In this document: positions 1,192 to 52,511 of the stretch, piece by piece
Position numbering within the stretch: the first letter of the stretch is position 1
How the letters are laid out: each line of letters opens with the position of its first letter
Assembly: GCA_036630325.1 (NCBI GenBank)
Contig: CP142734.1
Span: 434,001-498,000 of the forward strand
Length of the DNA: 64,000 bases
Origin: Vairimorpha necatrix
Taxonomy: Eukaryota
Direction of reading: 5' to 3'
Notes under the pieces: generated by a model
Seen by the model: the letters and a program-made list of their open reading frames with translations, nothing else
What the model was told of the DNA's origin: nothing
Database searches by the model: none
Translations under genes and position numbers: made by a program

Positions 1192-3447
1192 TTAATAATT
1201 TTTTATTAGAACTTTTATCAAATCTTCATTTATTATTATTCCATCTTTCCCATTATACATTTCTAATATATCTCGTTTACTCAATATTGTTTGTATAATT
1301 CTAAGGGATTTTTTAAAATTTTCTCTCTTAGATACATTATTTTCCATTGCATATATGAAATATTGTGCTATAATTTTAGGTAAATCTTTACTTGCCTTAT
1401 CCTCTAATACTTTCTTTACTTTTATTGCTACATCAAACTTAAAACTTTTTTCTAATTCGATTCTAAAATCATTTATTAGCTCTTCATTTATTATTGTCCT
1501 GAACATTGAAAATATATAATTATAAAATATAACTTCAAAGATGTTTCTTGCTTTTTTTATTACATATCTATCAATAAAAATTTCAATTTCTTTTATCCCT
1601 TCTGTTATTAATTTATTTTCAAAATTAAGTCTTTTTTCTTCATCCAATAGATTTTCTATATCTACATTTAATGCCTCTTCTAAAATTTCATTTAATCTTT
1701 CTTTCAAATTGGTGTTTTGTAATATTTTTACTAGTTTTTTTGTTTCAAATTCAGTTTCTTGCCTTTTCCCCCGAAAATACTTATCTTCCTCATTGTTTCT
1801 TAATAATTTTAATTTAATATTTCCAAATTTGTCTTTTAATTTATTTTTATCTAATCCCCTTGCTTCAATAAATTCTTCTCTATTATATTGTTTTTTAAAG
1901 TCTTTAATTATCAGATCTGAATTTTCTCGAAACAATCCTGCTATATTACAAAGTTCTCTCATTATCTGATTATTGTATTTAATAATATTATCAATATGTC
2001 TACTTATGAATTCTTGTATTATCATCGCAAAGCTAATATCTTCGGTTAAACTATTTTTTAATTTTACTAAAATTCCAATTTCTTTAATGTTTTGAAATAT
2101 GTGATCATTGCTAACATCGCTTTCTTTGATAAACCTCTCTGTTTCAATAAGTAAACAAATTTTAATTGTATAAAACTCTAAACGATCGTTTATCGATGAA
2201 CATTTAAATAGACCATTTATAGACTTATTGATTATTTCTTCAATTTCGTTTTCTACATCTTCCTCTATGTTAAATATTATATTTGCATCACTTGTTGTTA
2301 TTACTTTCGCGGATAACAATAAATGTACACATAGTAAATTTATTGGAGATCTTCCTTTTGTTAATATTCTCCTCAAAAGATAGTCAATCTTGTTATTTTT
2401 CAATAATAATCTATAAAACATTTCAACGCCTCTACAATTTTCAACATTTTTTATCGATGATATATTTTCCATAATCTTTTGAAATTCTAATAAATATTTT
2501 TCATTTAAATCATTTTGTTTATCACACAAACACTTTTTACTATCGGAATGATAAACATATTCCCCCGAACTGTGTTTAAAGATAATTTTTTTGGGTTTGA
2601 GCTCGGCTTTAAAATATGGATACATGATTTCAATAATATTAGATGTGCATTCGAGCTCAAATTGTATATAAAAGGCCTTAAACAAAACATTATAACTAAT
2701 TTTGAATAAACATAGTAGTTTTCTTAATATTTCTTCGTCAAATTTATTATTAAGTTTTATATTAGTATCGCTCAATGAATAAAATTTATCCACATCAAGT
2801 TCTCCGATATTTAACTCAAATAAATGATAAACATCGACAAAAGGAATGTTTAATCTAATACAAAATTCATCTTTTTCTGCCTTATAATGAGTATGAACGC
2901 TAAATACACCAAAATTATTATCATTATTACTAGTATTAGGTTTTAATTCGTATAAAATTCTATTTAAATAACTATCATTTTCACATATATTTTCATAATA
3001 AATATCCCAACCTTTCTTTTTTATCCTTCTCTCGTTATTTATAATTGTAATATTTTTTATAACTTCTTTCATGGTAAGGCAAACCCCGAAATTTAATGCA
3101 CTGTATGTTAAAACTATAGAATAATTATCTAAGCATTTATAAAAACTTCTTACATTTAATTCTATAGATTCAATAATATCACTTATGGATTTATTATCAT
3201 AATGGATAATAGATATGTAAGTATTGTTATTATCTATATTAATTAAGTTTTCTTCTGTATAAAACAGTATAGTTTTATTCCTAGTATTAAAAAATAAAGA
3301 TACTTTTGTAAAGTGGCTAGAATTCTGTAGTATTGTATAATCCCTGTTTATAATTTTGTTTAATATCATATTATTAATTATATCAAAAACTTCATGAGGA
3401 CTTGTCTGAACGAATAAAATGACGTTTATTAATAAAACGATATTCAT
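1192..3447 (-). CDS. Lineage-specific 751-aa hypothetical protein with possible N-terminal signal peptide
   Basis: Long intact ORF. TGCCCAT lies immediately upstream of the ATG (CCC motif). Hydrophobic N-terminus. A disrupted paralog lies at ~6290-16022. Confidence 0.85.
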   Translation of the reverse strand: MNIVLLINVILFVQTSPHEVFDIINNMILNKIINRDYTILQNSSHFTKVSLFFNTRNKTILFYTEENLINIDNNNTYISIIHYDNKSISDIIESIELNVRSFYKCLDNYSIVLTYSALNFGVCLTMKEVIKNITIINNERRIKKKGWDIYYENICENDSYLNRILYELKPNTSNNDNNFGVFSVHTHYKAEKDEFCIRLNIPFVDVYHLFELNIGELDVDKFYSLSDTNIKLNNKFDEEILRKLLCLFKISYNVLFKAFYIQFELECTSNIIEIMYPYFKAELKPKKIIFKHSSGEYVYHSDSKKCLCDKQNDLNEKYLLEFQKIMENISSIKNVENCRGVEMFYRLLLKNNKIDYLLRRILTKGRSPINLLCVHLLLSAKVITTSDANIIFNIEEDVENEIEEIINKSINGLFKCSSINDRLEFYTIKICLLIETERFIKESDVSNDHIFQNIKEIGILVKLKNSLTEDISFAMIIQEFISRHIDNIIKYNNQIMRELCNIAGLFRENSDLIIKDFKKQYNREEFIEARGLDKNKLKDKFGNIKLKLLRNNEEDKYFRGKRQETEFETKKLVKILQNTNLKERLNEILEEALNVDIENLLDEEKRLNFENKLITEGIKEIEIFIDRYVIKKARNIFEVIFYNYIFSMFRTIINEELINDFRIELEKSFKFDVAIKVKKVLEDKASKDLPKIIAQYFIYAMENNVSKRENFKKSLRIIQTILSKRDILEMYNGKDGIIINEDLIKVLIKNY

Positions 3448-5390: not shown

Positions 5391-7276
5391 TTTAACTATG
5401 TAATTTTTTTTTATATTATATATTTGATTAATTTTGAATTAAGCTAGTTTTCTCTATTTTTTTACTATAAATTTGCGCTTGACAAAAAAATTTTTATTGT
5501 AAAAAATAACAAAGTATATCTACTAAAGTTTTTATACATAAGAAATACTTCTTAATATTGTATATCAATCATTATCTACATAAAACAAATGGGTTGAAAA
5601 AAAAAATCAAAACTAATATTTAACGTGCGATAATGTGTTATGATGTGTAAGTGTGGTACCCTCTAGTGAGGGAGCCAAAACGAAAATATTGCTCCAACAG
5701 GGAGCGGATGTAAGTTTGTTTTTTAAATGATTTATTAGGGGGTGGAACTCATCTTTGTGGTTCCTATGTTGGCTTTGTTGTAATTAATATAATCTTGTTT
5801 ATTATCATTTTGTCGTACCCTTCTTTGAATATTTTTTTAATTATAAAAAATAATTTCTAGAAAATTCATTTTTGTTAAATATTAAGATAAATAAAAAATA
5901 GAATAAATGTAAAAATTATGTGGTAGGATACCACAGTAAGATAGATATATGGGAATATAGATATTATTTTTGAACAAAATAAATGAATATTTTTTATGTA
6001 TATTTCATAGTGATGAAAAGTAGTCTTTAAGTAAAACAATATAACTCATTGACTCCGACTTTTTAAAATTATAGAAATAATAAAGGGCGAACTAAGATTA
6101 TAAGATCATCAATTATCATCCCCATATATATATATATGGTTAATAATATATTTTTTTTAGCATATATTTAGAAATTTGATTTCAAAACAAAGTCTTACTT
6201 TCTGCATGGACAATTTAGTAAAAGATAAAAAAATAATAAATATTATCACACGCTGTTTATTTGTTTTTAAATTTAATTTAAGAATAAGATTTTATTTGTA
6301 ATAATAATCTTCTAACATTTTTATTGCGGACTCGTGGAACTTTATTTCTTCTCAAATATTGAAAAAATCTATTAAATCTTTTTCATTTTATAATATTTGA
6401 ATAACTTTTAGGTTTTTTTTCATATTCTTCAATTTTATCTAGATCATTTTTAACTTTATGTTCAAGTAGTTGTGTAAAAGTTTTATATAATTCATTCTTT
6501 TGACATTTTCTACGTTTTTTCATAAAAATACGACAGTCTTGTATTTTAAATCTTCCATTAAATCGTTTTTATAGTCTTTTATGAGATGTTCATTGATGTA
6601 CATATTGAGCATAATATTCTTTTTATTTATAAATATTTGCTCTATACCGTTTATTCCTTTTCTTATTAATTTTTTTTGAAATTAATTATTTCATTTTTAT
6701 CAAATACATTCTTAAATTCTGCATTTTTAGCTTCTCCAGTTGTAGTATGAAATAATACCGACAAAACCGAATATTGTAGAATTAATTCTATTTGCCTCGT
6801 ATATATTTCTATTTGTTTTCTTATTATTTCATGTTTTCTATCTATCTCAACAGCTTCTAACAAATTTTGATTTATTATTTGTAAATTTTTTTTACCTCAT
6901 CTTTATCCGATTCATGAATTTCAATAAACTCATCTCTATAACATTGTTTTTGTTTCATCACACAATTAAAAATGTTATTATATCCTGCAAATAAAAGGCA
7001 GAAATTACACAAATCTTTCATAACTTTCATTTTGTATTCTAAAATTGTTATAATGTGTCTACATAGCATTTATTGTATTATTATAGCAATACTGATGCCT
7101 AGTCTTTGATCATATAAATTAGAAATAGAAATATTTCTTTCTTTGATTAAATTTGCAATGTCTTTAAATTTTTAAATACTGAATTATAACTTACACCATT
7201 GCCATTAATAAATTCTTCTGCTTCTATGAGCAAGCAAACCTTATTAAATGTAGGGTTTAGAACCCTTTATAAATAA

Positions 7277-10200
7277 ATGGTTAACATGGCGAACACAAGG
7301 ATGAACAGGGAAACAAGAGAGTCCCGTAGTCAAGAGGCTAGAACATTAGAGAAAGAGGCAATTAGGATAGATAAGAGACTAAAGTTAATATTGAAAGTTG
7401 AGAAAGTTGAGTGGAAAGATGTTATGGATTTGGCATCTGCGAACTTGCAGGATTATATTTTTGAAAATTTTTGTGACGGAAGGAGCAGTTGGGAGGAAAT
7501 TTATAAAGGCTTACAAAAAGGAGCAGAATTTGAGAGAGAGTCAGAAGAAAGACAAGAAATGATTAAAGAGATTATGGATAAAGTGTTGAAAGAGTTTAGG
7601 GAAGAAAGAAAAGAAAATCTTAGGATGTATAGGAAAAGAAGAGAAATCAGAGAAACTACAAAATGTTTTATATGTAAGAAAGAAGGGCATTACGCTAGAG
7701 AATGTCATGAAAGTGTAGCTGGTAGGGAAAAATATAAAATTAAAAAGGAACAAGTTTTACAGAAAGAACCAATTATCAACAATGAAGGGAAAAGATGTAA
7801 AACAGTAAATAAGTTAGAAAATTTAATTGAAAAGTATCCGGAAGTTTTTAAAGAATCAGAAGAAAAGATAAAATATCTCACAGGAGAGAAGTGTCCAATA
7901 AATACTAAGCAAGGTGAAAAGGTTGTGAAAAGAGGGCAGAATGTGCCATACTACCTTAGGGTGAAATTTGAGGAGTACTTGAATAAGTTGGAAAATAGAG
8001 GGGTTATAAGACGTTCCAAAAGTGAGTGGAGGAGTCCAATAAGAGCACTTGAAAAACCAAATGGGGACGTAAGATTGGTAAGCAATTTGATGGCGTTAAA
8101 CGATTTGGTTGACAAGGACCCGTACTCACTACCGTTAATTAAGGATATTATGAGAGCCACACAGGGGTCAAAAGTATTTACGGTTATCGACTTAAAAGAA
8201 GGGTTTTATCATATTGAGATTGAGGAGCACCATAAGCACAAAACAGCATTTGAAGTGAATGGTCGAGTATACGAATGGAATAGTATGGTTATGGGGTTTA
8301 AGAATTCGCCTCATATAATGCAGAGAGTAATGAACAGAGTTTTAGATGAATTCAGAGGTAAAGGCGTAAAAGTATATATGGATGATATAGTTATTCATGG
8401 TAAAGACGTAAGAGTGCATGACGAGTTACTAGAGAGGGTAATTAAAAAGTTTAAAGAGTGTGGGTTGAGAATAAACCAAACAAAGATACAATACAAAAAA
8501 GATGAGGTGATGTTGCTGGGAGTAACAATTAATGGGGAGGTCATGGGACCGAATGAGATTAAAAAGCAGGAGACATTGGAATATAGAAAACCTGAGAATG
8601 TTAGAGAGTTAAGAAGATTTTTAGGACTAACTGGTTGGTTTAGAGACTTTATTCCCAACTATGCGTATAGAACAGTAAGGCTTACTGAGGCTTTAAAGAA
8701 AGATGTTAAGTGGAATTGGACGGAGGATATGGAAAGAGCTTTTGAGGATATGAAGCAAGGCTTGAGAGATATGAAAAAGTTGAAGATTCCGGACGGAAAA
8801 AAGCTATTTAGAGTAAGAACTGATGCGTGTGATACGGGGATCGGAGCAATTCTATTACAAGAAAATAAAGAGGGTGAGTGGATTCCGATACAATGGGCAT
8901 CGAAAATGTTGACTCCTACCGAGCGAAGATATACGATAAGTGAGAAAAAGATGTTGGCAATGTTTTTTGGAATAAAGAAGTTTGAAAGTGATTTGAGAGG
9001 AAGGAAATTTCATTTGATGACGGATCATAAAGCATTAGCAGAGATCAGAAATAAGCCATACTTCAATAATAACAGAATAAACAGATGGGTAGAACAGATA
9101 CAAGAGTTTGACTTTACAATAGAGTATGTGAAAGGGGAGTTGATGACAGATGCAGATGCGTTAAGTAGGCAGTATGATCAGGTAGAAGTTTCGGATGAAC
9201 AAAAAGAAAAGGACAACAAGAGAAAAGAAGTGATCGAAAAACAAATTTTGGGGAAAAAGCAGAAACATATTAAAGAAAAGGACGGTAAACAGTATTGGGA
9301 ATTTTCCACAGGTGAGGTGAAAGAGATATTGAGCCTAGATAGTAGAGAACATGAAATAACAAGAGTACATGAGGAGTTAAACCATAGAGGTGTCAAAGGC
9401 ACTTATTATAACATTAAACAAAGATGGTATTGGCCTGGTATGAAAGATCATATTAATAAGGTAATTAAGAATTGTGAAATATGTGGGATTAACAATAGGA
9501 AAAACACAGGAGGATGTGATTTCGTAGTAACTAGAAAGAAATTGGAGAAAGTGGCGTTGGATTTAATGGACATAGGTGGAGAGAATAGGTATGTGTTACT
9601 GGGTATTGATTACTTTACTAGAAGGTTGTGGGGTTCGAATTTGAGATGTAAAGAGAGTAGTGAAGTTATAGAAGTATTACAAAAGTGGATAAGGGAAGAT
9701 GGATTTCCAGAGGAATATGTGACAGACAACGGAAAAGAGTTTGTAAGTAATAGATTTAAAGAATGGTGTAGTATTAATGATATTAAACATAGGAAAGTGG
9801 GCTTAGAAGCTCATAGGAGTAATGGTAGAATCGAGAGATGCATCAGAACTATAAGAGAGACATTGATAAAGCAAAATGATGGGAATATTTCTGAAAAGAT
9901 AGAAAGAGCAATCAAAGGATATAATAATACACTACATACAGCAATAAAATGTACGCCGATGGAAGCGTGGAGAGATCAAACTGCTGAAGTTATAATTGAA
10001 AATGATGAAAATGGAAAATATGCTGGTCGGTTTAAGAGAAGACACAGAGAGACATTTACAGTAGGCCAAGAGGTAAGAATCGCTAGGAGAGAAAATTTAG
10101 GTACACGTGCGAAAACAGACAAGGGAAGATTTACGGGTCGCGGAAGGATCGTAGCTATAAGTGAAAATGATTCATATATTGTGAGACTACTGGATGGTAA

Positions 10201-10297
10201 AATTGTTAAAAAGAGGCATTATGATTTGAAAGAGATAAGGAAGAGTTGTTTAGAAGATGGAGAGACTACCCGTCTGGAGGGGGGATGTAGGGTTTAG
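7277..10297 (+). CDS. Gag-Pol polyprotein (short Gag, CCHC knuckle, RT, RNase H, integrase; no recognisable protease)
   Basis: CFICKKEGHYAREC; IDLKEGFYHI; YMDD; TDACDTGIGA and TDHKAL; integrase H..H..CEIC, LDLMD, TDNGKEF, NGRIER. RT-RH-IN order is that of Ty3/Gypsy. Confidence 0.95.
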   Translation: MVNMANTRMNRETRESRSQEARTLEKEAIRIDKRLKLILKVEKVEWKDVMDLASANLQDYIFENFCDGRSSWEEIYKGLQKGAEFERESEERQEMIKEIMDKVLKEFREERKENLRMYRKRREIRETTKCFICKKEGHYARECHESVAGREKYKIKKEQVLQKEPIINNEGKRCKTVNKLENLIEKYPEVFKESEEKIKYLTGEKCPINTKQGEKVVKRGQNVPYYLRVKFEEYLNKLENRGVIRRSKSEWRSPIRALEKPNGDVRLVSNLMALNDLVDKDPYSLPLIKDIMRATQGSKVFTVIDLKEGFYHIEIEEHHKHKTAFEVNGRVYEWNSMVMGFKNSPHIMQRVMNRVLDEFRGKGVKVYMDDIVIHGKDVRVHDELLERVIKKFKECGLRINQTKIQYKKDEVMLLGVTINGEVMGPNEIKKQETLEYRKPENVRELRRFLGLTGWFRDFIPNYAYRTVRLTEALKKDVKWNWTEDMERAFEDMKQGLRDMKKLKIPDGKKLFRVRTDACDTGIGAILLQENKEGEWIPIQWASKMLTPTERRYTISEKKMLAMFFGIKKFESDLRGRKFHLMTDHKALAEIRNKPYFNNNRINRWVEQIQEFDFTIEYVKGELMTDADALSRQYDQVEVSDEQKEKDNKRKEVIEKQILGKKQKHIKEKDGKQYWEFSTGEVKEILSLDSREHEITRVHEELNHRGVKGTYYNIKQRWYWPGMKDHINKVIKNCEICGINNRKNTGGCDFVVTRKKLEKVALDLMDIGGENRYVLLGIDYFTRRLWGSNLRCKESSEVIEVLQKWIREDGFPEEYVTDNGKEFVSNRFKEWCSINDIKHRKVGLEAHRSNGRIERCIRTIRETLIKQNDGNISEKIERAIKGYNNTLHTAIKCTPMEAWRDQTAEVIIENDENGKYAGRFKRRHRETFTVGQEVRIARRENLGTRAKTDKGRFTGRGRIVAISENDSYIVRLLDGKIVKKRHYDLKEIRKSCLEDGETTRLEGGCRV

Positions 10298-11295
10298 AAC
10301 CCTTAATAAATAAATGGTTAACATGAAATAACAAGAGTACATGAGGAGTTAAACCATAGAGGTGTCAAAGGCACTTATTATAACATTAAACAAAGATGGT
10401 ATTGGCCTGGTATGAAAGATCATATTAATAAGGTAATTAAGAATTGTGAAATATGTGGGATTAACAATAGGAAAAACACAGGAGGATGTGATTTCGTAGT
10501 AACTAGAAAGAAATTGGAGAAAGTGGCGTTGGATTTAATGGACATAGGTGGAGAGAATAGGTATGTGTTACTGGGTATTGATTACTTTACTAGAAGGTTG
10601 TGGGGTTCGAATTTGAGATGTAAAGAGAGTAGTGAAGTTATAGAGGTATTACAAAAGTGGATAAGGGAAGATGGATTTCCAGAGGAATATGTGACAGACA
10701 ACGGAAAAGAGTTTGTAAGTAATAGATTTAAAGAATGGTGTAGTATTAATGATATTAAACATAGGAAAGTGGGCTTAGAAGCTCATAGGAGTAATGGTAG
10801 AATCGAGAGATGCATCAGAACTATAAGAGAGACATTGATAAAGCAAAATGATGGGAATATTTCTGAAAAGATAGAAAGAGCAATCAAAGGATATAATAAT
10901 ACACTACATACAGCAATAAAATGTACGCCGATGGAAGCGTGGAGAGATCAAACTGCTGAAGTTATAATTGAAAATGATGAAAATGGAAAATATGCTGGTC
11001 GGTTTAAGAGAAGACACAGAGAGACATTTACAGTAGGCCAAGAGGTAAGAATCGCTAGGAGAGAAAATTTAGGTACACGTGCGAAAACAGACAAGGGAAG
11101 ATTTACGGGTCGCGGAAGGATCGTAGCTATAAGTGAAAATGATTCATATATTGTGAGACTACTGGATGGTAAAATTGTTAAAAAGAGGCATTATGATTTG
11201 AAAGAGATAAGGAAGAGTTGTTTAGAAGATGGAGAGACTACCCGTCTGGAGGGGGGATGTAGGGTTTAGAACCCTTAATAAATAAATGGTTAACA
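9352..11295 (+). repeat. 972-bp tandem duplication (integrase + PPT + LTR): 9352-10323 repeated at 10324-11295
   Basis: Near-identical sequence. One visible difference, A9673 vs G10645. ORF 10412-11269 equals the C-terminal 285 aa of the polyprotein. Confidence 0.95.
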
Positions 11296-12021
11296 TTAAA
11301 TAAAATTCGAATTTCATGTAAATATTGGTTTTAGTTATTAGTATATTTATAATGCGTTTAAAAATTACTTCTATTTTATTTAACCTATCCATTTCTTTTC
11401 CAGTTATTATAAGTAAATCATTTATGTCTATTATTTTCTCGTATAATTATAAATGTGCAAATAAGATATTTATGGGCAATCCAGGTTTATTAAGAATTCT
11501 AATTATGAGAGTTTTTAGACAGTCTTTTCTCAATATGAATTTGAAAAACATTTCAATTCCTTTACACTCTATATGTTCACTTATTGTATGTATTGCTCTT
11601 AAAAGTTCTTTAAATTTGCCAATACAATTATCATCACCATATATTTCATTTTAAATTTTTCTGGATTATTTCCGAAAACTTGTTCAAGTGTTACTTTATT
11701 TGATTAAATCTCAAGTTAAAAATATGGTTTCACAATTTCTATAATTTTATGTGTACATTTTAACTTAAATGGACATTAAATGTCTTGATTAAAACATTAT
11801 CGCTTATTTGAAACAAATAAGTAATTTACTAAGAATTTTTTCTTCACATTCATTATTCAGTTTAATATTTGTATTTTTTAATGAATAAAATTTGTCTACA
11901 TTAAATTCTTCGATATTTAATTCAAATAAATAGAAATTACTTTTCAGATTAAAATGATATCTAATGCAAAATTCAGAAATTACATTTTTATAATGAGGTT
12001 GAACTACAAATATATTCAGAT

Positions 12022-15000
12022 TGTTGATAATTTTAAATATTTTATATGTAACCCCTAATTTTTATGGAGAATAACAATAAACATATTAACATGGTGGAGA
12101 ATGAGATAGAACCCATGAATACAGAGATTAGTAGAGATAACATTATAAATGAGATACGAAGGTTTGAGTTAATGTCCTTTTTTAAGAATATGGAGGACGA
12201 GAGAAAGATTGAGTGGATTATGAGTAGAGCCAGTTACGATTTAATCGACTGGCACTACGAGATTATTGTGGGTCATAAAAAAATGACCTTTGTGAAATGG
12301 AGACAGTTGGCTTTAGAAGCATTCGGAAATAAAACATTGTCTTTAGCAAAACTGTACCGAATGAAGCAGGACAAAGATGAAAGCATTAAACGATATATCA
12401 TGAATGTAAAGTCTTCTTCACGGATATTTAAACTTAAAGAAGAAGAAGTAATTGAAATTATTACAGGTGGGATAAGAGATGAACTTGGAAGAGTAAAAAA
12501 TTTTTTGGAAATTAGTGGATCTTTGGATGAAAAAATTATTGATAAGTTGACAATCATAGAAGAAGAATGTTTAGAAGAAAATAAGAGAAAACAAGAAATG
12601 CAAGATTTACTGAAGAAACTTGAAAGTTTAAAAATCGAAACTACTAAACAAACCATTAAATGTTACAACTGTCAAAAATTAGGACATATTGCAAGAAACT
12701 GTCGTATGGGAACCAATTATAATCAACAGGGAAGTAAGAAAGTGAATGAAATAAGCACCGAATTATCAGACATTATTAAAAATAAAGAAAATTCAGTTTA
12801 TTTTTATGGACAACAGGTTCCTGTTACTTTTAACAATGGATCAACTTATAACTTTATCAGTAACGCGGTAGCTGCAAAGTTTAATCTACCATTTCAATGG
12901 AATTCTAAAGAAATGGTATTTAAGACCTGCCTTGAAGAGCTTTTTATAGTAAACAAACATACATTTATTGAATTGACGTATAAAGACCAAGTTTATCGTT
13001 TAAAATTTTTTATTTTACCCAAAGTGAGACTTGAAAAAATATTGATCGGGAAAAATGGGATGAGGGAGATGATGGAAACAGAAGATGAAGGATATGTGTG
13101 TGAAATCAAAACGGAACCAGGCAAAAAGTAGTAGAACCGTATATACATTGTCAAAGAACATGGAAGAAGGCGTTACAATGGCAATTCAGAAGCCTTTAAG
13201 CAAGGGATTAATTTAGGAGCCTAAGTCTACATGGCTTAATAATCTTCGGCCGGTAATAAAACCAGATGGTTTTATTCAAGTGACTACAAATTTAGTTGCG
13301 TTAAATAAAATAGTTGAACTTGGCAGGTATTCCATCCCCAGAATAGATGAGATTTTATGTAATTTGAGTGGAAGAAATTTTTCTCAAAGTTGGATCTAGA
13401 AGATGGGTTTTTTCAAATTAAGTTGGTTGAAAGAGATAGATTCAAGACAGCTTTTAGATTCTAACATAGACTGTATGAATGGAAGGTGATGTCACAAGGA
13501 TTCAAAAATCCACCTGCAATATAGAGGTTCATGGATTTTGCACTTAAAGAAGAAATAGGAAGGAGCTGTTTCTGTTATATAGATGATATTTTAATTTTTG
13601 GCAGAGATGAAAAAGATTATGATGAGGCATACAAAAGAATTAAAGAAGCTTTGGATAGAAACAAGCTTAAAATAAATGAAGACAAATCTAGTTTTAGACA
13701 GCGTGAAATCGACTTTTTAGGACATCATATAGAAGAAAATAGGATACTCCCATTAGTTGATAAGTTACAAGGAATAGAAGATTTAAAATCACCAAAGGAT
13801 AAGCAACAGCTACAGGAATTTTTAGGAACAATTAACTACTATAGAAGATTTATTAAAGACTGCTCCGGTATATGTAGTCCACTGTATGAATTATTAAAAG
13901 ACAAGAAACAGTTCATTTGGACAGAGGAAGAAGAGAAACTTTTTAGGAAGATCAAAGAGATTCTCAAAATGAACACAGGATTATTCCAGCCAGATTATAC
14001 TAAAGATTTTATTTTGACAACGGACGCTTCTAAGTATGGAATCGCGGCAGTACTTAGTCAAATTATTGATAAAAAGGAGATACCCATTGCGTTTGCTTCT
14101 AGGAAACAAAAAGACCATGAAATTAATTATGGTATTAGTGAAAAAGAGTGTTTGGCTATGTTATGGGGCATGGAAAATTTTAATTACTTTTTATATGGAG
14201 CGAACTTTGAGGTAATAACAGATCATAAAGCATTAGAAGTGCTTAATAAAGGTGAAATTAACTCCCCGAGAATTCAAAGATGGTTAGATAGAATGTCTAG
14301 ATATTGCTTTAAAGTTACGTACAGGCAGGGCAAAGACATACCTCACGTAGATTGTTTAAGCAGAAATTTTGATTTCGTTGAAAATGAGGAAATAAAGGAT
14401 GATAATAAACAAATAGAGGAAGACAAAGAAGACAGGAAGAATATTGAAAATAAAAATAACGAAGAAGAAGAAATTGAATTCAAGAAGATTAGGGTCGAAG
14501 AAAAAGAAATTGTGCGAGCTATTCATTTAGAACTATTACATAGAGTAAAACAATCATTAGAGTATGAAATTAGAAAAAGAGGACTCAAAATTAAAAATGT
14601 AGAAAAGCTAGTTAAAGAAGTAGTAAATGAATGTGAAATATGTTGTCAATACAATCCAAAAAAGAAAAAAAAGTTTATTTTTGTTACGGCATTCGAAAGA
14701 GGAGAAAAGGTTGCGGTGGATATAATAGGCCCAATAGGAAAGCAATATATTATATCAGCAATTGATTATTTTACTAGAGAAGGTTTTGCAAAAGTTCTTA
14801 GTTCAAGAAACGATGAAAAGGTAGTAAGTTTTATAGAAGATGTCAACGAAAAGGTCAAGATAAAAACACTTATATTAGATCAGTCAAAAGAAAATTTAAG
14901 TTCAAAGGTCGTCAACTTTTGTAAGCATCATAATATTGAGTTACATTATACATCTCCCTACCATCACCAATCCAATGGTAGAGTAGAGAGATTTAATAGG

Positions 15001-15485
15001 ACACTACAAGATCTAATATTTAAGAATAAGGAAGACAGTTTTTTAAAAACGAAGTTAAAAAGAGCTATAGAGATTTACAACAACACGTTTCATACTGGAA
15101 TCTTAATGACACCCCAAGAAGCAACCTTGTTAAATGTACAAGACAAACTAAGACAGATTCAAATGGAAAATATAATAAAATACAATAAAAAGAATGGAAA
15201 AGGTGAGCAAGAACATTTTTTTAGACCAGGGGAGGTTGTGCTAATCAGACAAGAAGGAAATAGAGGAAAAGGTAGCCCTAAGTTTAAGGTTCGAGGATGT
15301 GTTTATAAAGCTTTAAAAAATAATGCGTTTATAATCAAGATAGGAAAAAAGAAAATAAAAAGACACGCTTCTCAGTTAAAGCTTTTAGTTGATGAGCCAA
15401 TTTTGTAGAGGGGGATGTTGATAATTTTAAATATTTTATATGTAACCCCTAATTTTTATGGAGAATAACAATAAACATATTAACA
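12022..15485 (+). mobile_element. Ty3/Gypsy LTR retrotransposon B with identical 70-bp LTRs and disrupted gag-pol
   Basis: LTRs 12022-12091 and 15416-15485. TSD CAGAT at 12017-12021 and 15486-15490. PBS TGGTGGAGAATG (tRNA-Ala-type 3' end CATTCTCCACCA). PPT AGAGGGGGA. Confidence 0.95.
12064..15408 (+). pseudogene. gag-pol of element B, broken in the RT N-terminal region (13131-13530)
   Basis: CYNCQKLGHIARNC; protease site mutated (TFNNGSTYNFI); YIDD; TDASKYGIAA; VDIIGP; NGRVERFNRTL. Stops and frameshifts lie between the two ORFs. Confidence 0.9.
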
Positions 15486-22733: not shown

Positions 22734-23132
22734 TTAAATACTCCTTTTATATATCAAGTATATAATCAGAGCTAGTAAAGATAGTATTGTTGTAATTCTT
22801 ATTGTTTTCCAAATAATAAATCTCTTTGTTTTATTTGTCTGTTCTGAAGAATCGCCAACTTCAAAAACACATTTGTCTTTATTATCTTCTTTTAATATCT
22901 TATAGGGTTGACTAGAATTTAAAATTTCATTTTATATAAAATTTCTGATAACATCCTTAAGTATAACTGTTTTCTTTTTTTCTATTATCGTCTCATCTTC
23001 CTTTGATTTTTGTAGATAAAATTCTGGAACGTCTAATGTAATGTCTTTAATAATTGTAAGTTGATTTAATTCTTCTTTGGTATTACATTCTTCAATAGAA
23101 CAAAATAGATATTTTATATAGAATAAAAGCAT
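22734..23132 (-). pseudogene. Small signal-peptide/C-terminal-TM gene with one in-frame TAA (22932-22934); paralog of 24528-24920
   Basis: First ~80 codons and the upstream region are near-identical to the paralog. The frame continues past the stop to a TM segment (ITTILSLLALIIYLIYKRSI*). Confidence 0.8.
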
Positions 23133-24527
23133 GGGGTATTGTTAGAAAGAATAATTTATAGTTTGATATTACAGCATCATGGTGCAAGTATAACAATTCC
23201 TACAAAATCTATGATACATAATTTGACAGTTTACTTTATGAATGTATTTTTGAAAAAACCATAAATTGAAAAACAGGTATTTAAAAAAATATCAACTTTT
23301 ATATTATTTGACAGCCTCTAAATGTTCTGTCAAAAAAAATATTATTCGAGTCATAAAAAATAAAAAAAAATATTGTAAAATTTTATCATTGTACTTCCTT
23401 CCAGGTATAATATTTAATTTTCACGCTTTAGTATGGATTTATTAAAAACAAAAATGCCAGAACGAGAATAAAGAAAAAATAATATGGTACAAACAATATT
23501 ATCATTAAAATCTAACTTGATTTTATACTATAGAAAAATTAAAAAAACAACCTCTAAAATTGATACAGTTTTCCCAAATTAGTATTAAAGGACTTTAAAA
23601 TTGTAAAGATGATCATTAATTTTTGTATTCCTAAGTCATTATAATTTCCTTTTGTTATTTTTTAACATTTCACAGTCATATAAATTTGTTTCTTTTAGCC
23701 TTTGAATTTAGTAATATTATTTGTAGTCATACATCATATTTGACCTATTCTGTGATATATTGATTTTTTTATGGTCTAAAAATAAAAAACCGATAAGATT
23801 AAAAATAACATCAATTTTATAAACAATGGCATACTTTTTTCTGTTAAAGAAAAATTTAATCTATGTATATAATAATTTATTTATTTCATAATCCAAACAC
23901 AGAATTATAAATTATATATATAAATATTTTTTAGCATTTTTTTTATTCTACAATAAAAGCGTAAACAAGATAAGTCTTGATCAATTAATAGAAAAAAAAT
24001 TAAGACATATAAAATTTTTAAAAATAAATTATTTAAGGTAATTATTGTGCTATATATTAACTTTATTTTTAAGTTTAACTCGCCATCCTTTGCCGCATAT
24101 ACTGTCAAAATCAAGCCAAAAAAGAAAATTTAGAATTTATATTTGATTGGGGACAAACCAAAAATGTTCCTATGACAGTTTTATTTCATTTTATTTGTTT
24201 TTAGAGTTAATATAGCAGTATATAAATGATCATTGAAATTATTTTTTAATTCAATGCTCGAAAATTCATAAATTAGGATTATTATTGATACTGCCGTACA
24301 CATTGAATTTTGTTCTATAAATTTGTCTAGTTTTTCTGTGAATAAAAATTCTACAAAAATATGCTTCTTATAAAAACTGAATTAGCAAATTAGTCCTTTT
24401 AAAATATAAATGTGAAATTTTGACGGATTAAAGGATTACATTTAAGATTAAACTCATAAATAAACAAAATCTAATAATCCGTAATAAATTTGGCTCTTCA
24501 AGTAGCTTAAATTAATATTTTATTGAT

Positions 24528-24920
24528 TTAATGCATCAATTTATATTTATATAACGAATACATATATAAAGCCATTGCAGTTGCTACGATTAAGACCCAC
24601 AAAAATTTAAAATAAAAAAACCAATCTTTTATAATTATTGGTTTTGAAATCTTCTGCACGGCATAGACAGCATCATCTTTTAATATTTTATAGGGTTGAC
24701 TAGAATTTATAATTTCATTTTGAATAAAATTTCTGATAACATCCTTAAGTATAACTGTTTTCTTTTTTTCTATTATCGTCTCATCTTCCTTTGATTTTTG
24801 TAGATAAAATTCTGGAACGTCTAATTTAATGTATTTACTAATTGTAAGTTGATTTAATTCTTCTTTGGTATTACATTCTTCAATAGAACAAAATAGATAT
24901 TTTATATAGAATATAAGCAT
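24528..24920 (-). CDS. 130-aa putative secreted, membrane-anchored protein
   Basis: CCCC-ATG start, hydrophobic N-terminus, C-terminal TM (FLWVLIVATAMALYMYSL), tandem paralog nearby. Confidence 0.8.
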   Translation of the reverse strand: MLIFYIKYLFCSIEECNTKEELNQLTISKYIKLDVPEFYLQKSKEDETIIEKKKTVILKDVIRNFIQNEIINSSQPYKILKDDAVYAVQKISKPIIIKDWFFYFKFLWVLIVATAMALYMYSLYKYKLMH

Positions 24921-27900
24921 GGGGCATTGTTAGAAAGAATAATTTATAGTTTGATATTACAGCATCATGGTGCAAGTATAACATCTTCTACAAAATCTTC
25001 GATACATAATTTGACTGTTAACGTTCTGAATGTATAATTGAATAACACTTCTAGTCGTATATTAAGTGTATTTAAAAAATTTGAACAATTTTATTTTTTA
25101 CATGACAGCACTTGAAATGTGCTGTCAAAAAAATCAAAACATTAATAATTTGAGTCATAAAGTCAGATATGATCTAATTTTTTTAAAAAAAATATAAGTT
25201 TTAGATTCATTTAAAAGGCTATGGTCAAAGTAAAACAATCTATGTATGTAACCCTATGTATTATTCAAACTTTTGAATATCAATCTGTTTCTGTAAAATT
25301 CCATTAAGACGTAATAATATTTATAGATATTTCAAAATATATAAACGTTCTCTTATTTATAATAAAATCCTTTGCTTATTAGGAGGTCATACATTATGAA
25401 AAATCGAATATGATTAGTTACGTCCTTAAAAATCATCTTAGGACTAAAGCAAAGAAATAATACTTACAAAAAATAAAAGTTTATTTTTACTAATTTGCAA
25501 ATTGATTTATAACTACATACCAATATAACATATCGTATCTAAAATTTAAATATATTCAAGGTTATTTAGTCAAAATTACAGATAAAATACGGCAGAAAAA
25601 AAAATTATGAAAACAATAAAAGATAAATTCGTTATATAAAAAATATAATAAGAAAGATACAAAACAAAATTTAGTTCAAAGTGATAGAAGCCTTTCATTG
25701 AACTTCATAAATTGTAAATTATAAATAACAAGATCCTTTAGAATATGCTCCAAATTAATAAACAAGAGAAGCGGCCAAACAAATCAGAATGTATATAATT
25801 GTCTTTAAGAGTATTTAACCTGTATCGAAGGTTGTTTGCAAAAAGCACTCTATGGTTCTGCCCCAGCAAATATAATTTTTAATGTGTAAATTGTAATATT
25901 GTTTATTTAATTGGGATTTATTTCACTTCTATCTCGTCCTTAATGTGTTGGCTTGCTTAGGCAAAATAAAAAGAAAATATTTATATTAAAATATTTAGAA
26001 AAAGTATTTGGAGAATAGTAAAATAATGCCACAATCTAAAAATATCGGCCTAAAGTATAAATTTGGTAAAAAAAATTATTTAGTTTAGATATAATATATT
26101 AAAAAAATAAGTGAAGAACAGGTTAAATATCAAATCTTGCTAAGTAAAGATTATAAAATTTTTAACTTTATTTTTTGAACGTAAGGCCTTTTCTTTATCC
26201 CAGCATATGTTAGTATTAACGAAAAATTAAAATACATGAAATAATTATAGGATTAAAAAGAAATTTTGAAATATGATGATTAGTATGATACAATTGAAAA
26301 AAATACAAAGTAATTTAATAGGTCGATGTAAGTCTTAAAAAGACCAATATTAAAGAACTTTAATTTAGATGATTTGAATTTATTGGTATTAAAAGACTTG
26401 AGAGTTAATATAAACACATTGCAGATAAAAATGCAAGAATTGAAATCAATTTGATAGGATCTATAATTATACCTAATATTTCTTTATAAATAAAGGAAAC
26501 ACGAGTAAAACTTAAAAAAAAATATGGAGCAAATAAAATAGGGAAAACTTGAAAAGTAAAAAAATTGTATTAAAATAATATTAAACTAATCATAAGTAAT
26601 AAAAAAAACTTTTCTGAGGTTTTTAAGAAAATGAAGACATATAATCAATGTCGATGGTATAGTAACTTAAGAGATATAGATGTTGAAATTATAAAACGAA
26701 CGTAATAAATGGCGAGAAAAGAATAAGATTTCCGAAAACATTAGCTTTATTAATTTTAAATTATTTTATTTATGTTTTTTTAGGATCAAGATAAGAAAAT
26801 TACAAAAGTTTTTTTTAACAAATGCTAATATATAAATTGCTCCAGAAAATCATTTATTTGATAAATTCAATTAATAAATATACTTAAAATTTTTTATCTT
26901 ACACACTAACAGTTTATTATATGTTTATGTGGTATCACCATTGAGGAAAGTATTTAAAATATTTTTATTGTTAAAATTGTTTCTTCTTTCCATTACTCCG
27001 TACCCCTCCCCCGGATAAAATGATTGAATAAATGTTGGAGGGAAAACTGGACGAATTTGGCGGAAAAAAATTTAAAAACTATTTTTATGATATTTGGGAT
27101 ATCATAGTTTATACTAAGACTTGACAACAAATACAAAAATGAATGGATATTTTTTTTATAAATATAAAATTGCGCGAATTAAAAGTATTTTCATTTTCAT
27201 TGATTACATATAAAAAAATCTGTAACAGTACATATTATACAATCCCTTTAAAGAAGTAAACAATATAAATTATATCTTTTGCTTTCAAGATTTCTGTCTA
27301 TAAAAATTGAAAGGATAGAAAAAAAAAATTTTAAATAATGATAACACTATTTATAAACAAATATTGTAATTTTTAACATTAAAGAATAAAAACAAGAAAA
27401 TTACTTGAAGCTAAAAATGCTAAAAGAAAATTTTTCATATCGAAATCCGCATACAATAATAAAAAAGATAGTTTGATCGACTGAGCTGTACACTCTATGG
27501 GAATATTAGGTATGACAGACAAATAAATTTTCGTAAATTTTGTAATCAAAAGAGCATATATATATATATATACTTAATGATCTGTATAACGTTGTAATTT
27601 TTAGTCGGTGAGATCATTTTGTCGAAGTAACACCAAAAAAAATACGTAGTCTATAAATTACTATATACAATAGCGATTAATAATAAAACAACTTTTTTCC
27701 CAAGTTTTGTAATTTCTTAACTATAAAAAATAACAAAAAATTATTTGTTTAATATCAAAACTATAAAGCACCAAGTGTTTAATTAAATCATCAACAATAT
27801 TTTTTTCATATTTTAGAATAATATCAAACATAATATAATGACCAATCAGATAAATAAACTCAACTTAATTTGTTTTAATTAATATTATAATTGTTTCAGA

Positions 27901-33300: not shown

Positions 33301-35889
33301 AACCGAATTATTACTGGATTAGCTATTTCATGCACGGTGGTTAATAGGTATAACCCAGGATGGCAATGAAACATTTGTGGTAGGGCTTTGTTTGTTTTTT
33401 GGCTTTTGCTTTCATATCCTAGATCATCAATGGTTTCTCAAAAATATATTTTATCAGGTAGTAACAAGGAAATATAAGATAATATTATAAATGCTTACTA
33501 TCGCTAAACTATTTATAGTAAAGCCTTGAGACCACATAGAGATGTATAGATTCTCATATGATAGATCTTCAACTGTGGAAATGGGAAAAGATTGAGTAAG
33601 AGATAGTGTTCAGAATGCTTAAATTATATTTCTAATAAATCATAGACAACATGTAAACAGAGAAAATCTTTGGAGGTTTGTAAGGTTCAAAATATTTAAC
33701 AAAAGCTTTTTGGACCATTTAGCTAATATAAAACATCTTTAAAATTTTACTAGATTGAAAGTGTGATGTCTATCTTTGCTGAGCTTATCAGCTGTGGTGA
33801 TTTATGCAATCTGTTTTGATTTATAAATGTCAATAAAATTTAACTAATGTTTTTGTCCGAAAACTCATAGATTTATTTTTAAAGAAAATATCATACACAT
33901 AATAAAAGTAATAAGACATTAGTAATAAACAAATCCAAGGGATTTGTTTTATAAAATTTGTTTTAAAAAATTACTATTTAATTTGTATAATCCTATTTAA
34001 ATGCTTAAAATTTAGATATAAAAATTAAATTAGAGACAATTTATAGAAGATAACCTAATTTACCATATCCAATGTATCAAGTATATTCACGTGAAAAGAT
34101 TACTTAAATAGTTCGATGTATTATGCAAAAAATTAATTATACACAGTCGAAATTTGTTTTGCAGAACTGTACCTTAATTCTGAGTAACTTTAGAAATAAT
34201 TTAAATACGGAAATCAGAAATATATTAACAAATACTAATTTGGTTACTGAATAATATGTGATAGATTCCAAAAAGCATTTTGAATTTATTCAGATTGTCT
34301 AAATTTCCTCAATACTTAGACTAAAATTTTATAAACTATATAAATTACATTTACTCGTATTTTAATAGACAATTGCGAGGCACCGTGTATTGTTTGCATT
34401 ATTATATAAGTTATTAATATAACTACGAATATAAAATTCTATTTGGCTGATGTGTTGTACTTAAATTCTACTCAAGTGAAAAAACATTCATTTTATTTCA
34501 GTATTCAGAACTCTGCCTTTTTACTTACATTTACAACTATGAGCCTAACTATATTCCAACTTTCCAGCAATATCTATAGTAATATGAAATAATATGAGAT
34601 TAATTTTACTTATAACCAAGAAACATTTTTAGGAATTAAAAAAAGAGTAAAGGGCTGGAGTCCAAACATATAAAAAGCCAATAATTAAAATTTTGCGACA
34701 AAACTATATTCTTTTAAAAATATAAAATTAGCAACATAATTTAACTAAAAGACCATGTATACATAAGTTATGGTGCTCTACACGCTGCTATTAGAAAAAA
34801 AAAGCAAATTTTATAAATTTTATGGTTTTACAATAGTGTTGTTTTTTTTTTTCATAGGATACAGTTATTTCGTCTCAGTTCGCTATTATATATTTCTTGA
34901 ATAACTTCTTAAAAGACGTAAAGCATTGCTATTAAAACACGCAGACTGAAATTTCGCTAAATTATCTTTATAAATTATCACAAGTTGCCATTTTTAAAAA
35001 ATATAAAATCCACTAATTTATCATTATCGTACGAGTCTGCCAAAGTTGTAAATATTTGTATTTCAAAAAAACCAGTTAAAAACAAATCTACATATCAAAA
35101 ATATTTAAAACTTAAAATTCAGTAGTGTTTTATCAGATATTAATCATAAATTACTATGGCTAAAATGTAAAGATATGAACTGAAAATAAAAAAACAACCC
35201 TTGAAGATTTTTATGTGCTTCATAGCTGATACTTTTAACTTTTTATATGATTTTTCTGTTGATTTTATATAATTACAAGCAAATTTTAACTTTTTTGTTC
35301 ATTAACTTATAATTGTCATAGAATGAATAAGTAATTCTAAAAATCTAACCCCTGATTGTTTTTTATGTTGATATATATATATATATTAGGCAAGAATGTC
35401 AAATTAAATTATGTTATTTCAATCTACTTAAAACACCATCGTAAAATTTTTTCTCTTTAGAAACATATTAAAATTATAAATTTCGTAGTAGCTCTTGGGC
35501 TCCTACATGTTTGACATTTCTTAATATTTATCACCTTTATTATTTATCATAAGCAACATGGAAGGAAAAGAGATGAAAACAAATAAACAATTAAATACTT
35601 CCAACAATCATTAAAAAAGATTGGTAATTATGATTGTAACTGCGTATGTGTTCTGTTATTATTTATATATAAAAAAAATCCTTATTATGAAAATTTTTTC
35701 ATAATTACACACGCGATCTAACAAAAAAATTATAAAATTCGTTTTATAATTTTAGATTACTACTGAACAATATATCAAATAAAATTAATTATTTATAATT
35801 GGTTTTCTATATTTTTACTAATTTAATTCCATATGGTAGTAATATATAATATAAACTACAATAAAACAACCATAAAAAAATATTAATAA

Positions 35890-36409
35890 CTAGCGTATGC
35901 TTTCCCGTTTTGAAAACGGGATTTACATGTTTAGTTTTTTAATATGTATTTCCCCTTTTAATTTTGTTAAGTTTCCATTTTGGGATGAATGAATTTAAAA
36001 AGGAGAAAACATGATTTTTAAAAATACTTTTTAGCAACATATAAGGAGTAAAGTTGAGCTAAAATATTTAATAATTATAATGAGATAATTTTGGGATTTT
36101 CTAAGCTCAAGTTTTGACATTTATATTCAAAATCTTTATTAATAAATTAATTTGCAATTTTTCGTGGAAGGGTTAAATAAATTCTAAAAAACGATTCTGA
36201 CGATATTTTGGAACTGAGTTTTACAAAAAACTTTATTAAAAACGAAAAGTATTAACATATAGTATACGCATCTATAATTATCAAATTGAAACATTAAATC
36301 TATATATGATATTATATTAACGTAAAAGGCTCAAAATGTATCGTTAGAAATTTCAAATTCACAAAAAAAGAGGGGTAAAAAATTAAATAAAATTCTTTTA
36401 TATATATGA
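35890..36409 (-). mobile_element. Non-autonomous Helitron, ~520 bp
   Basis: Minus strand: A|TCATATATAT 5' end, subterminal hairpin CCCGTTTT-C-AAAACGGG (35904-35920), CTAG|T 3' end. No TSD. A second copy starts at 61310. Confidence 0.8.
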
Positions 36410-51400: not shown

Positions 51401-52511
51401 GACCGAAATTCTATTTTCTATATCTATTGGGATATTTAACATCTTCACCAGGTCGTAACTAATGTAATTAATGTCGGCTCCATAGTCTAGTAGTGCTAGT
51501 ACTTTTCCTCCGCCAATTTTCACCAAAAATCTAGGGACATTGGCTGCCTTGCTACTACATGTTAATGTCATCAGTTTCTTATCTGAACACTTCTTATAAT
51601 CATTTCTGCCACCAGTATTGGTTTGTATTATGCTCTTCGATTTATTCTTTGATAGTTCTGGACAATTACTTCTATAATGTTGACCTTTGCAATTGTAACA
51701 GCTAATAAATTTCTTTTGAAAACCACTTCTCACATCTTCCGATTTATTCTTGCTAATTTGCATCTTAGATTGTTCTTTACTCTCATTCTCAGAATCTATC
51801 TTAACTGCCAATTTCAAAACTGCCATCCAACTCTTACAATCCCTGTATCGATTTGCATTCCCAACTGGTATATTCATAACTACCGTATTAATAACATCTT
51901 TTAGTGGTATAGTAATGTTTTTGTGTATTGAGTAAATTTCTAACCATAATATCTCGTTGTTACATTCTCTCAACTTCTTATGTAGTAGTATATTCAACAA
52001 TTTACTGTTGCCAGAAACTTCTTCGGGGCTGAAGTATTCTAAGAACTGTTGTTCAAATTCAACTACACTTTCAAACACATTATATCTTGAGCCTTCAAAC
52101 CAGAGTCGAGCTTTTCCAGTGAGATTAGTTTCTACAAAACCAAAATATTCTTCTTCAGTCCAAGATTCTCTAAATGGTTTAAATTGTAGTAAGAACTCTT
52201 CTGCTTCCGTCCTTTTACCATCAAATTTTCTGAAGTTGTATGTACCCCTGATGTTGATTTTCATTGCAGCTAATTGTTTTTCTAGCATCTCTACTGTATT
52301 CCTAGTCGTTTGCTTCTCGACTGGTTCCATATCATCTTCGTTGTCGCCATTTGTTAAATAAAGTTTCTCCTTCCTTTTCATAATATTTTTAGATGGGTAA
52401 AATATTTATTTATTATTTATAGTAAATATTTTACAGTAGATACTTTGGGTAAGTATCTACAATAAAGTAATTACAGGATAATCTCAGTAACTAGATTATC
52501 ATCCTGTAACA
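48443..52511 (-). mobile_element. Ty3/Gypsy LTR retrotransposon C with 160-bp LTRs
   Basis: LTRs 48443-48602 and 52352-52511. TSD CACGG at 48438-48442 and 52512-52516. PBS TGGCGACAAC (tRNA-Ser-like end). Purine tract AAAGAAAGGGAG precedes the 3' LTR. Confidence 0.95.
48562..52381 (-). pseudogene. gag-pol of element C, with a stop after RNase H and frameshifts in integrase
   Basis: CYNCKGQHYRSNC; LLDYGA (altered protease site); YLDD; TDASDIGIAG; RLAR* (TAG at a conserved Trp); NGQTERLNRTL; WTGPY. Confidence 0.92.

Follow-up and report, generated by a model that had tools for sequence, protein, structure and literature searches.

Can a long terminal repeat (LTR) retrotransposon of the Ty3/gypsy type persist as a lineage without a protease of its own? 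In textbook accounts, LTR retrotransposons and retroviruses come with a protease, a complete capsid and LTRs that run to hundreds of base pairs. The question is raised by an element on the plus strand of a 64,000-nucleotide stretch of the genome of the microsporidian Vairimorpha necatrix (assembly GCA_036630325.1, contig CP142734.1, forward-strand positions 434,001 to 498,000; G+C content 26.9%), which we term the window and in whose own coordinates all positions are given. An earlier note, made from the letters of the window, had described at 7249-10323 a Gypsy element with 38-bp LTRs, a tiny Gag and no protease, and had left it between a reduced protease-less lineage and an in-frame deletion derivative. 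We consider it probable that the element represents a Ty3/gypsy branch specific to microsporidia, one reduced to about 3.07 kb and deprived of its protease.

The outer anatomy is compact throughout. A 38-nucleotide direct repeat with TG..CA ends occurs at 7249-7286 and 10286-10323, these two copies differing only at LTR position 20, and once more at 11258-11295, where it is identical to the middle copy; a scan of the window allowing up to three mismatches returns these three matches, against none in 100 shuffles, so that the tiny LTRs of the earlier note are real. So is its polypurine tract (PPT), GGAGGGGGGA at 10276-10285, which stands directly 5' of the middle LTR, the 3' LTR of the full-length unit. 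The uninterrupted open reading frame (ORF) said to run from LTR to LTR was likewise recovered: it spans 7277..10297, encodes 1006 amino acids (aa) and takes up 3021 of the 3075 nucleotides of 7249-10323, starting at position 29 of the 5' LTR and ending with a TAG at positions 10-12 of the downstream LTR. Another ATG lies at the junction, its A being the last base of the LTR and its TG the first bases of the putative primer-binding site (PBS); counted from there (7286..10297), the polyprotein has 1003 aa. The sequence TGGCGAACA, starting with TGG, adjoins the 5' repeat directly on its 3' side, and the putative PBS, TGGCGAACACAAGG at 7287..7300, also encodes the conserved N-terminus M-A-N-T-R. 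The 38-bp LTR doubles as coding sequence, with the stop codon inside it and the start codon shared with the PBS.

Pfam searches with the 1006-aa ORF recover, in its numbering, a sub-threshold zinc knuckle (129-143), the reverse transcriptase (RT) model RVT_1 (259-418; E=5e-31), two RT-linked RNase H models (481-611), Integrase_H2C2 (690-741; E=2.6e-14) and rve (766-839; E=2.7e-10). On the DNA, a single CCHC zinc knuckle of the nucleocapsid type lies at 7664..7705, the RT with its YMDD motif at 7754..8530, the RNase H at 8717..9109, and the integrase, with an H2C2 zinc-binding domain and a DDE core, at 9344..9928. The element thus keeps RT, RNase H and DDE integrase in the Gypsy order, together with the one knuckle and a helical Gag remnant of about 125 aa (7286..7663, aa 1-126 from the junction ATG).

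No protease was found in the ORF, and there is no room for one, because only about 15-35 aa separate the knuckle from the RT. The knuckle occupies aa 130-143 of the 1006-aa ORF (ending at residue 140 if counted from the junction ATG), and comparison with the Ty3 and foamy-virus enzymes fixes where the RT starts: query residue 219 pairs with residue 66 of the solved Ty3 RT, and query residue 157 with residue 112 of the foamy-virus PFV protease-RT, a position immediately beyond the protease of that protein. Measured to an RT anchor at query residue 220, the distance from the knuckle is 93 aa, as against 335 aa, protease included, in the Ty3 Gag-Pol (knuckle at about 265-278, anchor at 600). What stands at the usual place of the protease is a short linker (7706..7753) that varies among relatives. 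No Pfam protease family matches the ORF even at E<=1, and no D[ST]G motif occurs in it upstream of the RT; the earlier note was right both in finding no D[ST]G[AS] motif or protease and in placing the RT shortly after a knuckle preceded by some 130 aa. It had also called for structure prediction of the N-terminal region. An AlphaFold model of the first 207 aa, built on a 27-row alignment with a mean predicted local distance difference test score (pLDDT) of 81.9, has helices at 11-35, 43-49 and 52-62 and a long helix at 69-124, about 125 aa in all, with no retropepsin beta fold and no folded domain between knuckle and RT: after the knuckle come one helix (141-158) and then coil, with pLDDT below 50 at residues 165-173 (nucleotides 7778-7804).

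The same architecture recurs in a broad set of relatives. A protein search with the polyprotein gave 170 hits out of 8000 candidates scored. Roughly the first 47 are 42-73% identical to the query, among them records named Nosema granulosis, Vairimorpha necatrix and Enteropsectra breve and two bacterial metagenome-assembled genomes that evidently contain microsporidian contigs; 21 of these 47 lie on contigs of 3,024-3,283 bp with ORFs of about 1000 aa. The knuckle-to-anchor distance could be measured in the 37 proteins (the query and 36 hits) that have both a CCHC knuckle and the anchor. It is 96-145 aa in 34, 174-175 aa in two and 235 aa in one; the extra length in P0035 and P0020 is Lys/Glu-rich or repetitive low-complexity sequence, P0011 being the third long-gap member, and a protease-sized folded gap occurs in none of the 37. 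Among the more distant Ty3/gypsy hits (beyond P0047) with both landmarks the distance is 166-372 aa, and a D[ST]G motif, where one was found by script in the few proteins checked, lies about 117-152 aa before the anchor. No aspartic-protease family is among the 25 most frequent of the 43 Pfam families matched by 31 aligned members; of three weak Peptidase_A17 hits (best E=0.047), the one located, in P0011, falls within the RT/RNase H.

A maximum-likelihood tree was built from the RT-RNase H region (73 rows, 455 columns; a quick search with support from the Shimodaira-Hasegawa-like approximate likelihood ratio test, SH-aLRT, only), leaving out the neighboring element B, whose RT is broken. In it the 45 rows that had been labelled protease-less group together in a single clade, at SH-aLRT 99. 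Its members span 42-75% identity to the window element. Just outside it branch P0043/P0044, P0049, P0046/P0048 and P0052, of which P0043/P0044, P0046/P0048 and P0052 bear a protease, while a second neighbor, element C, lies far from the clade among animal-type Ty3/gypsy elements. This 45-row clade, drawn from Nosema, Vairimorpha, Enteropsectra and other contigs, is the collection of homologs for which the earlier note had asked; the want of a protease-sized gap in all 37 measurable members, the single well-supported clade and the recurrence of tiny LTRs (see below) all favor the reduced protease-less lineage that it had proposed. The earliest branch, P0041, has a long Gag of canonical look, without a knuckle or a protease hit, and hence protease loss may precede the shrinkage of Gag; a profile of the clade aligns to P0041 by hhalign only from the RT start. 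Compared with the relative L001 (68% aa identity over 888 codons), the element is 77, 81 and 47% identical at codon positions 1, 2 and 3; the nonsynonymous divergence (dN) is 0.245 and the synonymous divergence (dS) is saturated, so that the Nei-Gojobori method (NG86) gave no dN/dS value. Such a pattern is that of coding sequence under constraint.

L001-L004 come from two metagenome-assembled genomes labelled Clostridium and Turicibacter (G001 and G002), which hold many eukaryotic retroelement contigs (49 and 14 matches); these contigs are probably misbinned microsporidian or host DNA. L005/L006, a rearranged metagenome chimera that joins, in frame, part of an RNase H from another family to a clade element truncated at its 5' end, was excluded. 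A search of viral contigs with the element gave no match.

The Gag remnant is itself conserved, with the motifs Q-E, AS..L..F and a W before the knuckle. The knuckle matches retroviral nucleocapsids (HIV-1 NC, E=5.7e-4) and aligns to that of Ty3. The helical part is less easily placed. In structure searches the best Z score is 6.1, and the C-lobe of Arc is reached with Z 5.2 (root-mean-square deviation 3.0, 63 residues aligned) from the 207-aa model only, which is within the noise expected of helical folds. The Arc C-lobe is a domesticated Ty3 capsid lobe. Foldseek against the pdb and viral sets found no match with either the 207-aa or a 95-aa N-terminal model, and a wide VIA-align comparison found none above noise. 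By ESM features the region resembles Arc-like, Ty3_capsid and Retrotrans_gag clusters, scoring 0.86-0.89 whether or not the knuckle is included; such scores serve as leads only. On the model it is plausible that the region represents a single reduced capsid lobe. A library search with the N-terminal 160 aa gave 72 hits, those covering the helical part being 45-240 aa and the rest matching the knuckle only. The short proteins P0121-P0129, P0133, P0150 and P0160 (82-210 aa) match only the Gag remnant, several ending just past the knuckle; these may be contig-end fragments or a separate gag ORF in some relatives.

The tiny LTRs are a trait of the family to judge from the contigs compared, 38/39-bp LTRs recurring in relatives at about 50% and at 66-69% protein identity, and the protease-bearing sister type is compact as well. 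L007, a decayed metagenome copy of about 50% protein identity and 3,163 bp, has 39-bp TG..CA LTRs with one mismatch, a TTATA duplication on both sides, a PBS TGGCACCCAGTC and a PPT AAGGCGGGGA. In L001 a PPT is followed by a 38-bp 3' sequence resembling the window LTR, and tracts equivalent to the PPT precede the LTRs of L001, L007 and L008; the 5' LTR of L008 was looked for and not found. L012, of the protease-bearing sister type, has 58-bp LTRs, 3,364 bp between their outer ends and a 1095-aa frame from LTR to LTR, with no matching target duplication. In the window element (A), element B and L012 alike, the N-terminal Met is formed from the A of the terminal CA and the TG of the PBS, and an MA or MG start is seen in 24 of the 27 homologs covering the column of the junction ATG; the full MANTR is kept, besides the query, in 5 of 30 aligned homologs and in 5 further short hits.

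The order of signals within the window LTR is TG end, stop codon (10-12), ACCCTT (14-19), TATAAA/AATAAA (20-29), ATG (29-31) and CA (37-38), and a CCC-core motif (ACCC, or GCCCC in L001) together with AATAAA occurs in all six LTRs compared (A, B, L001, L007, L008 and L012). A CCC/CCCC core motif, ACCCTT in N. apis, is reported upstream of genes in seven Nosema species and associated with expression (PMC11592040), and in E. cuniculi 5' untranslated regions are shorter than 7 nucleotides and AAUAAA lies near stop codons (PMC2803860). By analogy with such Nosema host genes, ACCCTT in the 5' LTR might drive transcription starting a few bases before the ATG, at about LTR position 20-35, and AATAAA in the 3' LTR might direct polyadenylation at or just past the LTR end. 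Since the proposed start lies at about 20-35 and the poly(A) site at the LTR end, the repeated region (R) would be only about 10-16 nucleotides long and U5 would nearly vanish. The RNA fold of LTR plus leader is no better than that of shuffles (z=0.28).

Two other accounts of the missing protease have to be weighed against loss in a lineage. A protease of divergent or non-aspartic fold could be present but hidden in the ORF. The Pfam method used can detect proteases in such proteins: in the knuckle-to-RT segment, element B (12022-15485) matches RVP_2 (E=1.1e-3) and element C (48443-52511, minus strand) matches Asp_protease_2 (E=1.4e-3), and P0043, P0044, P0048 and P0052 give hits similar to these. 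That even true carriers score only about 1e-3 limits the sensitivity of sequence detection, and it is the one point in favor of a hidden protease. The same controls qualify the statement of the earlier note that B and C have the domain, in that both indeed give weak hits but read NNGS (B) and DYGA (C) at the active-site position, neither being D[ST]G. Against a hidden protease, the roughly 125 aa of the N-terminal region are helices and not a retropepsin beta fold, the RT begins about 15 aa after the knuckle by the Ty3 and foamy-virus alignments, and what remains is the 15-35-aa linker, some short spacers and the C-terminal tail that follows the integrase core, this tail lying outside the folded models; we regard this account as very improbable. 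Still more improbable is that an in-frame deletion in a normal element produced it, whether the loss is seen as specific to this copy or to its family, a reading which the short length would suit and for which nothing further speaks; we rejected it. The same architecture is found in 37 of 37 measurable members at 42-75% identity, the clade is monophyletic, and the N-terminal domain is conserved and modelled with high confidence. Contigs of four public runs (including X1, X2 and X4), which we aligned to window positions 6800-11800, also bear on this point: the earlier note had named near-identical protease-bearing copies as a possible refutation, and the family contigs of run X1, 99.7% identical to the window copy, carry no insertion relative to it.

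Less improbable than these, though still unlikely, is that cleavage of the clade's polyprotein depends on an aspartic protease supplied by other, protease-bearing Ty3/gypsy elements that are co-resident with it. The protease-bearing relatives B and C share the window with the element, L012/P0048 (LDTGA) is in the same contaminated assembly as L001, and the knuckle-to-RT linker is, in the model, flexible and could be a cleavage site. That linker is not conserved, however, and the nearest protease-bearing relatives are at most 38% identical in Pol and unalignable in Gag, so that shared cleavage sites would be surprising; moreover, the B and C copies carry the NNGS and DYGA already mentioned, and the clade is diverse and has kept intact ORFs in many sources. 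We therefore return to protease loss in a reduced lineage as the best explanation, in which a single Gag(nucleocapsid)-RT-RNase H-integrase polypeptide would act without element-encoded proteolytic maturation. Within this explanation there is an even chance that the polypeptide acts unprocessed, as an RNA-bound complex, though how it would work can only be conjectured; cleavage by the protease of co-resident elements is a possibility of clearly lesser weight, and host proteases or an unknown route would account for the rest. Integration would make 5-bp duplications in AT-rich DNA.

Several points weigh against this explanation or soften it. Protease-bearing relatives do co-occur with clade members (B and C in the window; L012 with L001 in assembly G001). 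Of the 45 clade rows, eight have no knuckle or are truncated at the N-terminus, and these were labelled protease-less by hit rank. No longer, protease-bearing carrier of the Gag remnant was found, but this is a weak negative, as the 160-aa search missed known relatives of 1000 aa. The kinship of the N-terminal region with capsids is unproven. The PBS called by the earlier note stands directly after the 5' LTR and starts with TGG, as claimed, but beyond TGG it does not match the 3' end of the sole tRNA in the window, a tRNA-Met. The composite structure of the insertion described below is known from a single assembly. Finally, where transcription starts, where polyadenylation falls and how far R extends are inferred, as is transposition by clade members without any protease.

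If the clade is taken at its fullest, it would be an autonomous lineage of LTR retrotransposons of 3.0-3.2 kb, possibly the smallest known, cycling without proteolytic maturation or a closed capsid; we offer this tentatively, at somewhat less than even odds. The polypeptide would then bind its own RNA, reverse transcribe it and integrate the product much like the ORF2 protein of long interspersed nuclear elements (LINEs), strand transfer would rest on the R of about 10-16 nucleotides, and the 38-bp LTR would serve as promoter, terminator, attachment (att) site and coding sequence at once. A diverse, selectively maintained protease-less clade would lower the bound on what an LTR element needs by much and would offer a natural system in which to ask whether RT and integrase can work while fused to Gag. 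It would also show microsporidian genome compaction acting on the parasites of the genome as well as on its genes; the protease-bearing sister type is already down to 3.4 kb, with LTRs of 58-70 bp. Programs that search for LTRs commonly require about 100 bp or more, and as they would miss such elements, the repeat content of microsporidia may be under-annotated.

Among known systems, the element is closest in its enzymes to Ty3 of Saccharomyces cerevisiae (Metaviridae): the RT-RNase H matches the solved Ty3 RT (4ol8) with E=7.7e-56 and the Gag-Pol with E=6.6e-64, and the two share the alignable knuckle, the RT-RNase H-integrase order, the TG..CA ends of the LTRs and the 5-bp target duplication. 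Apart from the much longer knuckle-to-RT stretch noted above, Ty3 differs in its two-lobed capsid, separate GAG3 and POL3 frames, LTRs of about 340 bp and length of 5.4 kb, as against the one ORF, 38-bp LTRs and 3.07 kb of the window element. Of the features that mark Ty3/gypsy elements, the direct TG..CA LTRs, a 4-6 bp target-site duplication (TSD) with insertion, the RT/RNase H/integrase order and the PPT are present, and the aspartic protease between Gag and RT is lacking. A non-autonomous element of the TRIM, LARD or TR-GAG kind was rejected, as RT, RNase H and integrase are all in one open frame; an element of the DIRS/Ngaro type was rejected too, as the ORF carries Integrase_H2C2 and rve, and the LTRs stand in direct orientation. 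The LINE ORF2 protein and DIRS-type elements work without a protease and have no DDE integrase and no direct TG..CA LTRs; they can offer only a possible functional analogy, that of an unprocessed RT protein acting on its own RNA, with no phylogenetic relationship. Tf1 of Schizosaccharomyces pombe resembles the window element in its single ORF from Gag to integrase but has a protease, which it needs, and LTRs of several hundred base pairs.

Closer to the host, Ty3/gypsy groups restricted to microsporidia, Nosema included, and having one polyprotein in place of separate gag and pol are described in the main text of Parisot et al. (2014; PMC4202319); compared by description only, the single polyprotein and the microsporidian hosts of the three groups fit our element, and the word "protease" is absent from that main text. 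The Nbr elements of N. bombycis, Ty3/gypsy elements of the same host genus group, are said in a citing passage nearly all to encode Gag, protease, RT, RNase H and integrase (PMC2474625), and on that passage they would be of the protease-bearing type like B and L012, unlike the window element. Full-text literature searches turned up no description of a protease-less or sub-50-bp-LTR Ty3/gypsy lineage, though consensus sequences in Repbase or in supplementary files may hold such elements.

The boundaries of the insertion proved to be wider than first drawn. The earlier note had taken 7249-10323 as the element and had put a 5-bp TSD around it, yet the five letters after 10323 are TGAAA, matching the TTAAA on the left at 4 of 5 positions and equal to the internal element sequence from 9352 onward. 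The segment 9348-10319 is duplicated as 10320-11291, with one mismatch in 972 nucleotides (at 9673), and TGAAA is therefore not flank. The final 934 bp of the body thus stand there again (10324..11257, equal to 9352-10285), with part of the integrase, the PPT and a 285-aa ORF, and lead into the third LTR (11258..11295), which is followed by TTAAA, a perfect match to the left. Given the third LTR, the perfect TTAAA pair (7244..7248 and 11296..11300) and the duplicated 3' body, the inserted unit in the assembly is 7249-11295, 4047 bp made up of LTR, complete body, LTR, the repeated 934 bp and LTR, and neither the former boundary nor the former TSD can be kept. At the inner junction, the LTR end plus the first PBS bases share the microhomology AACAT(G) with 9348-9353. 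The letters at this junction would fit a minus-strand template switch onto the U5/PBS junction during reverse transcription, and would fit a later microhomology-mediated duplication equally well.

In the public run X1 a 440-nucleotide contig joins 7242 to 11295, with seven letters common to both sides of the join, and skips 4052 nucleotides, that is, the 4047 of the unit and the 5-bp duplication. As this contig is the empty site, the insertion is polymorphic; it is also young. In the same run the element contigs (7269-8679 and 8650-10314) have word depths of 60.6 and 65.3 and the flank contigs 3.4-3.8, depth here not being copy number. At 7241, loose contig ends in X1 and X2 run into different upstream flanks and hence mark other insertion sites; the element family is multicopy.

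Whether the window copy is itself competent is a separate matter. Of 194 alignment columns that are nearly invariant, four differ in the query: V513, M544, K558 and L685. The third of these is the EKKMLA in the RNase H over which the earlier note had cautioned. It is real in the window copy, K558 (codon 8948-8950) standing where 27 of 27 aligned homologs have Glu, and it does not extend to the family. K558 aligns with the second Glu of the Ty3 motif ELELL, which we take to be the catalytic E401 of the Ty3 RNase H. At 8368, 8369, 8947, 8948, 8959 and 8960 the contigs of all four runs have G and the window has A, the other copies encoding E365, E558 and V562, which are the family consensus. Because the contigs of the four runs read Glu, E558K appears private to the window copy or to its assembly. 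Compared with the X1 contigs, the window shows 10 differences over about 3,046 positions; every one is a transition, nine go toward A/T, and six form three adjacent GG-to-AA pairs. All six differences from run X4 are of this doublet kind. Such doublets could be editing-like damage, AT-biased mutation or assembly error. With Lys in place of a Glu at an RNase H catalytic position, the window copy itself is probably incompetent, unless the three GG-to-AA differences are assembly errors.

Of the neighbors, element B belongs with the protease-bearing relatives (43% identity to P0048) and has identical 70-bp LTRs, a CAGAT duplication and a PPT AGAGGGGGA; the copy has decayed, its RT being interrupted by stops in the N-terminal half. 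Element C has LTRs of about 160 bp that are 96.9% identical and a protease-like region, and the placement of its RT among animal-type Ty3/gypsy proteins hints at a different origin. A 275-aa ORF on the minus strand at 16603-17430 matches an ISXO2-like/IS1595 DDE transposase domain (E=5e-9) and, to go by this match, probably belongs to a Merlin-type DNA transposon, a type reported in microsporidia. An ITPase gene at 60006-60572 shares 60% identity with the one recorded for Vairimorpha necatrix, 52-54% with those of V. ceranae and V. bombi and 44% with that of Nosema granulosis, which places the window in the Nosema/Vairimorpha group. The stretch 2701-2825 is 78% like 11807-11931, which adjoins the insertion site, and a 751-aa ORF on the minus strand at 1192-3447 has no Pfam match. 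Direct repeats occur at 22884-23183 and 24672-24971 (97% alike, spaced by 1788 bp) and at 35879-36320 and 61299-61739 (82-84% alike, spaced by 25.4 kb), and at 62577-62686 at least four copies of a 22-bp unit (ACAC.TTGTTT.ATTTTTATAG), 80-100% alike, are arranged head to tail.

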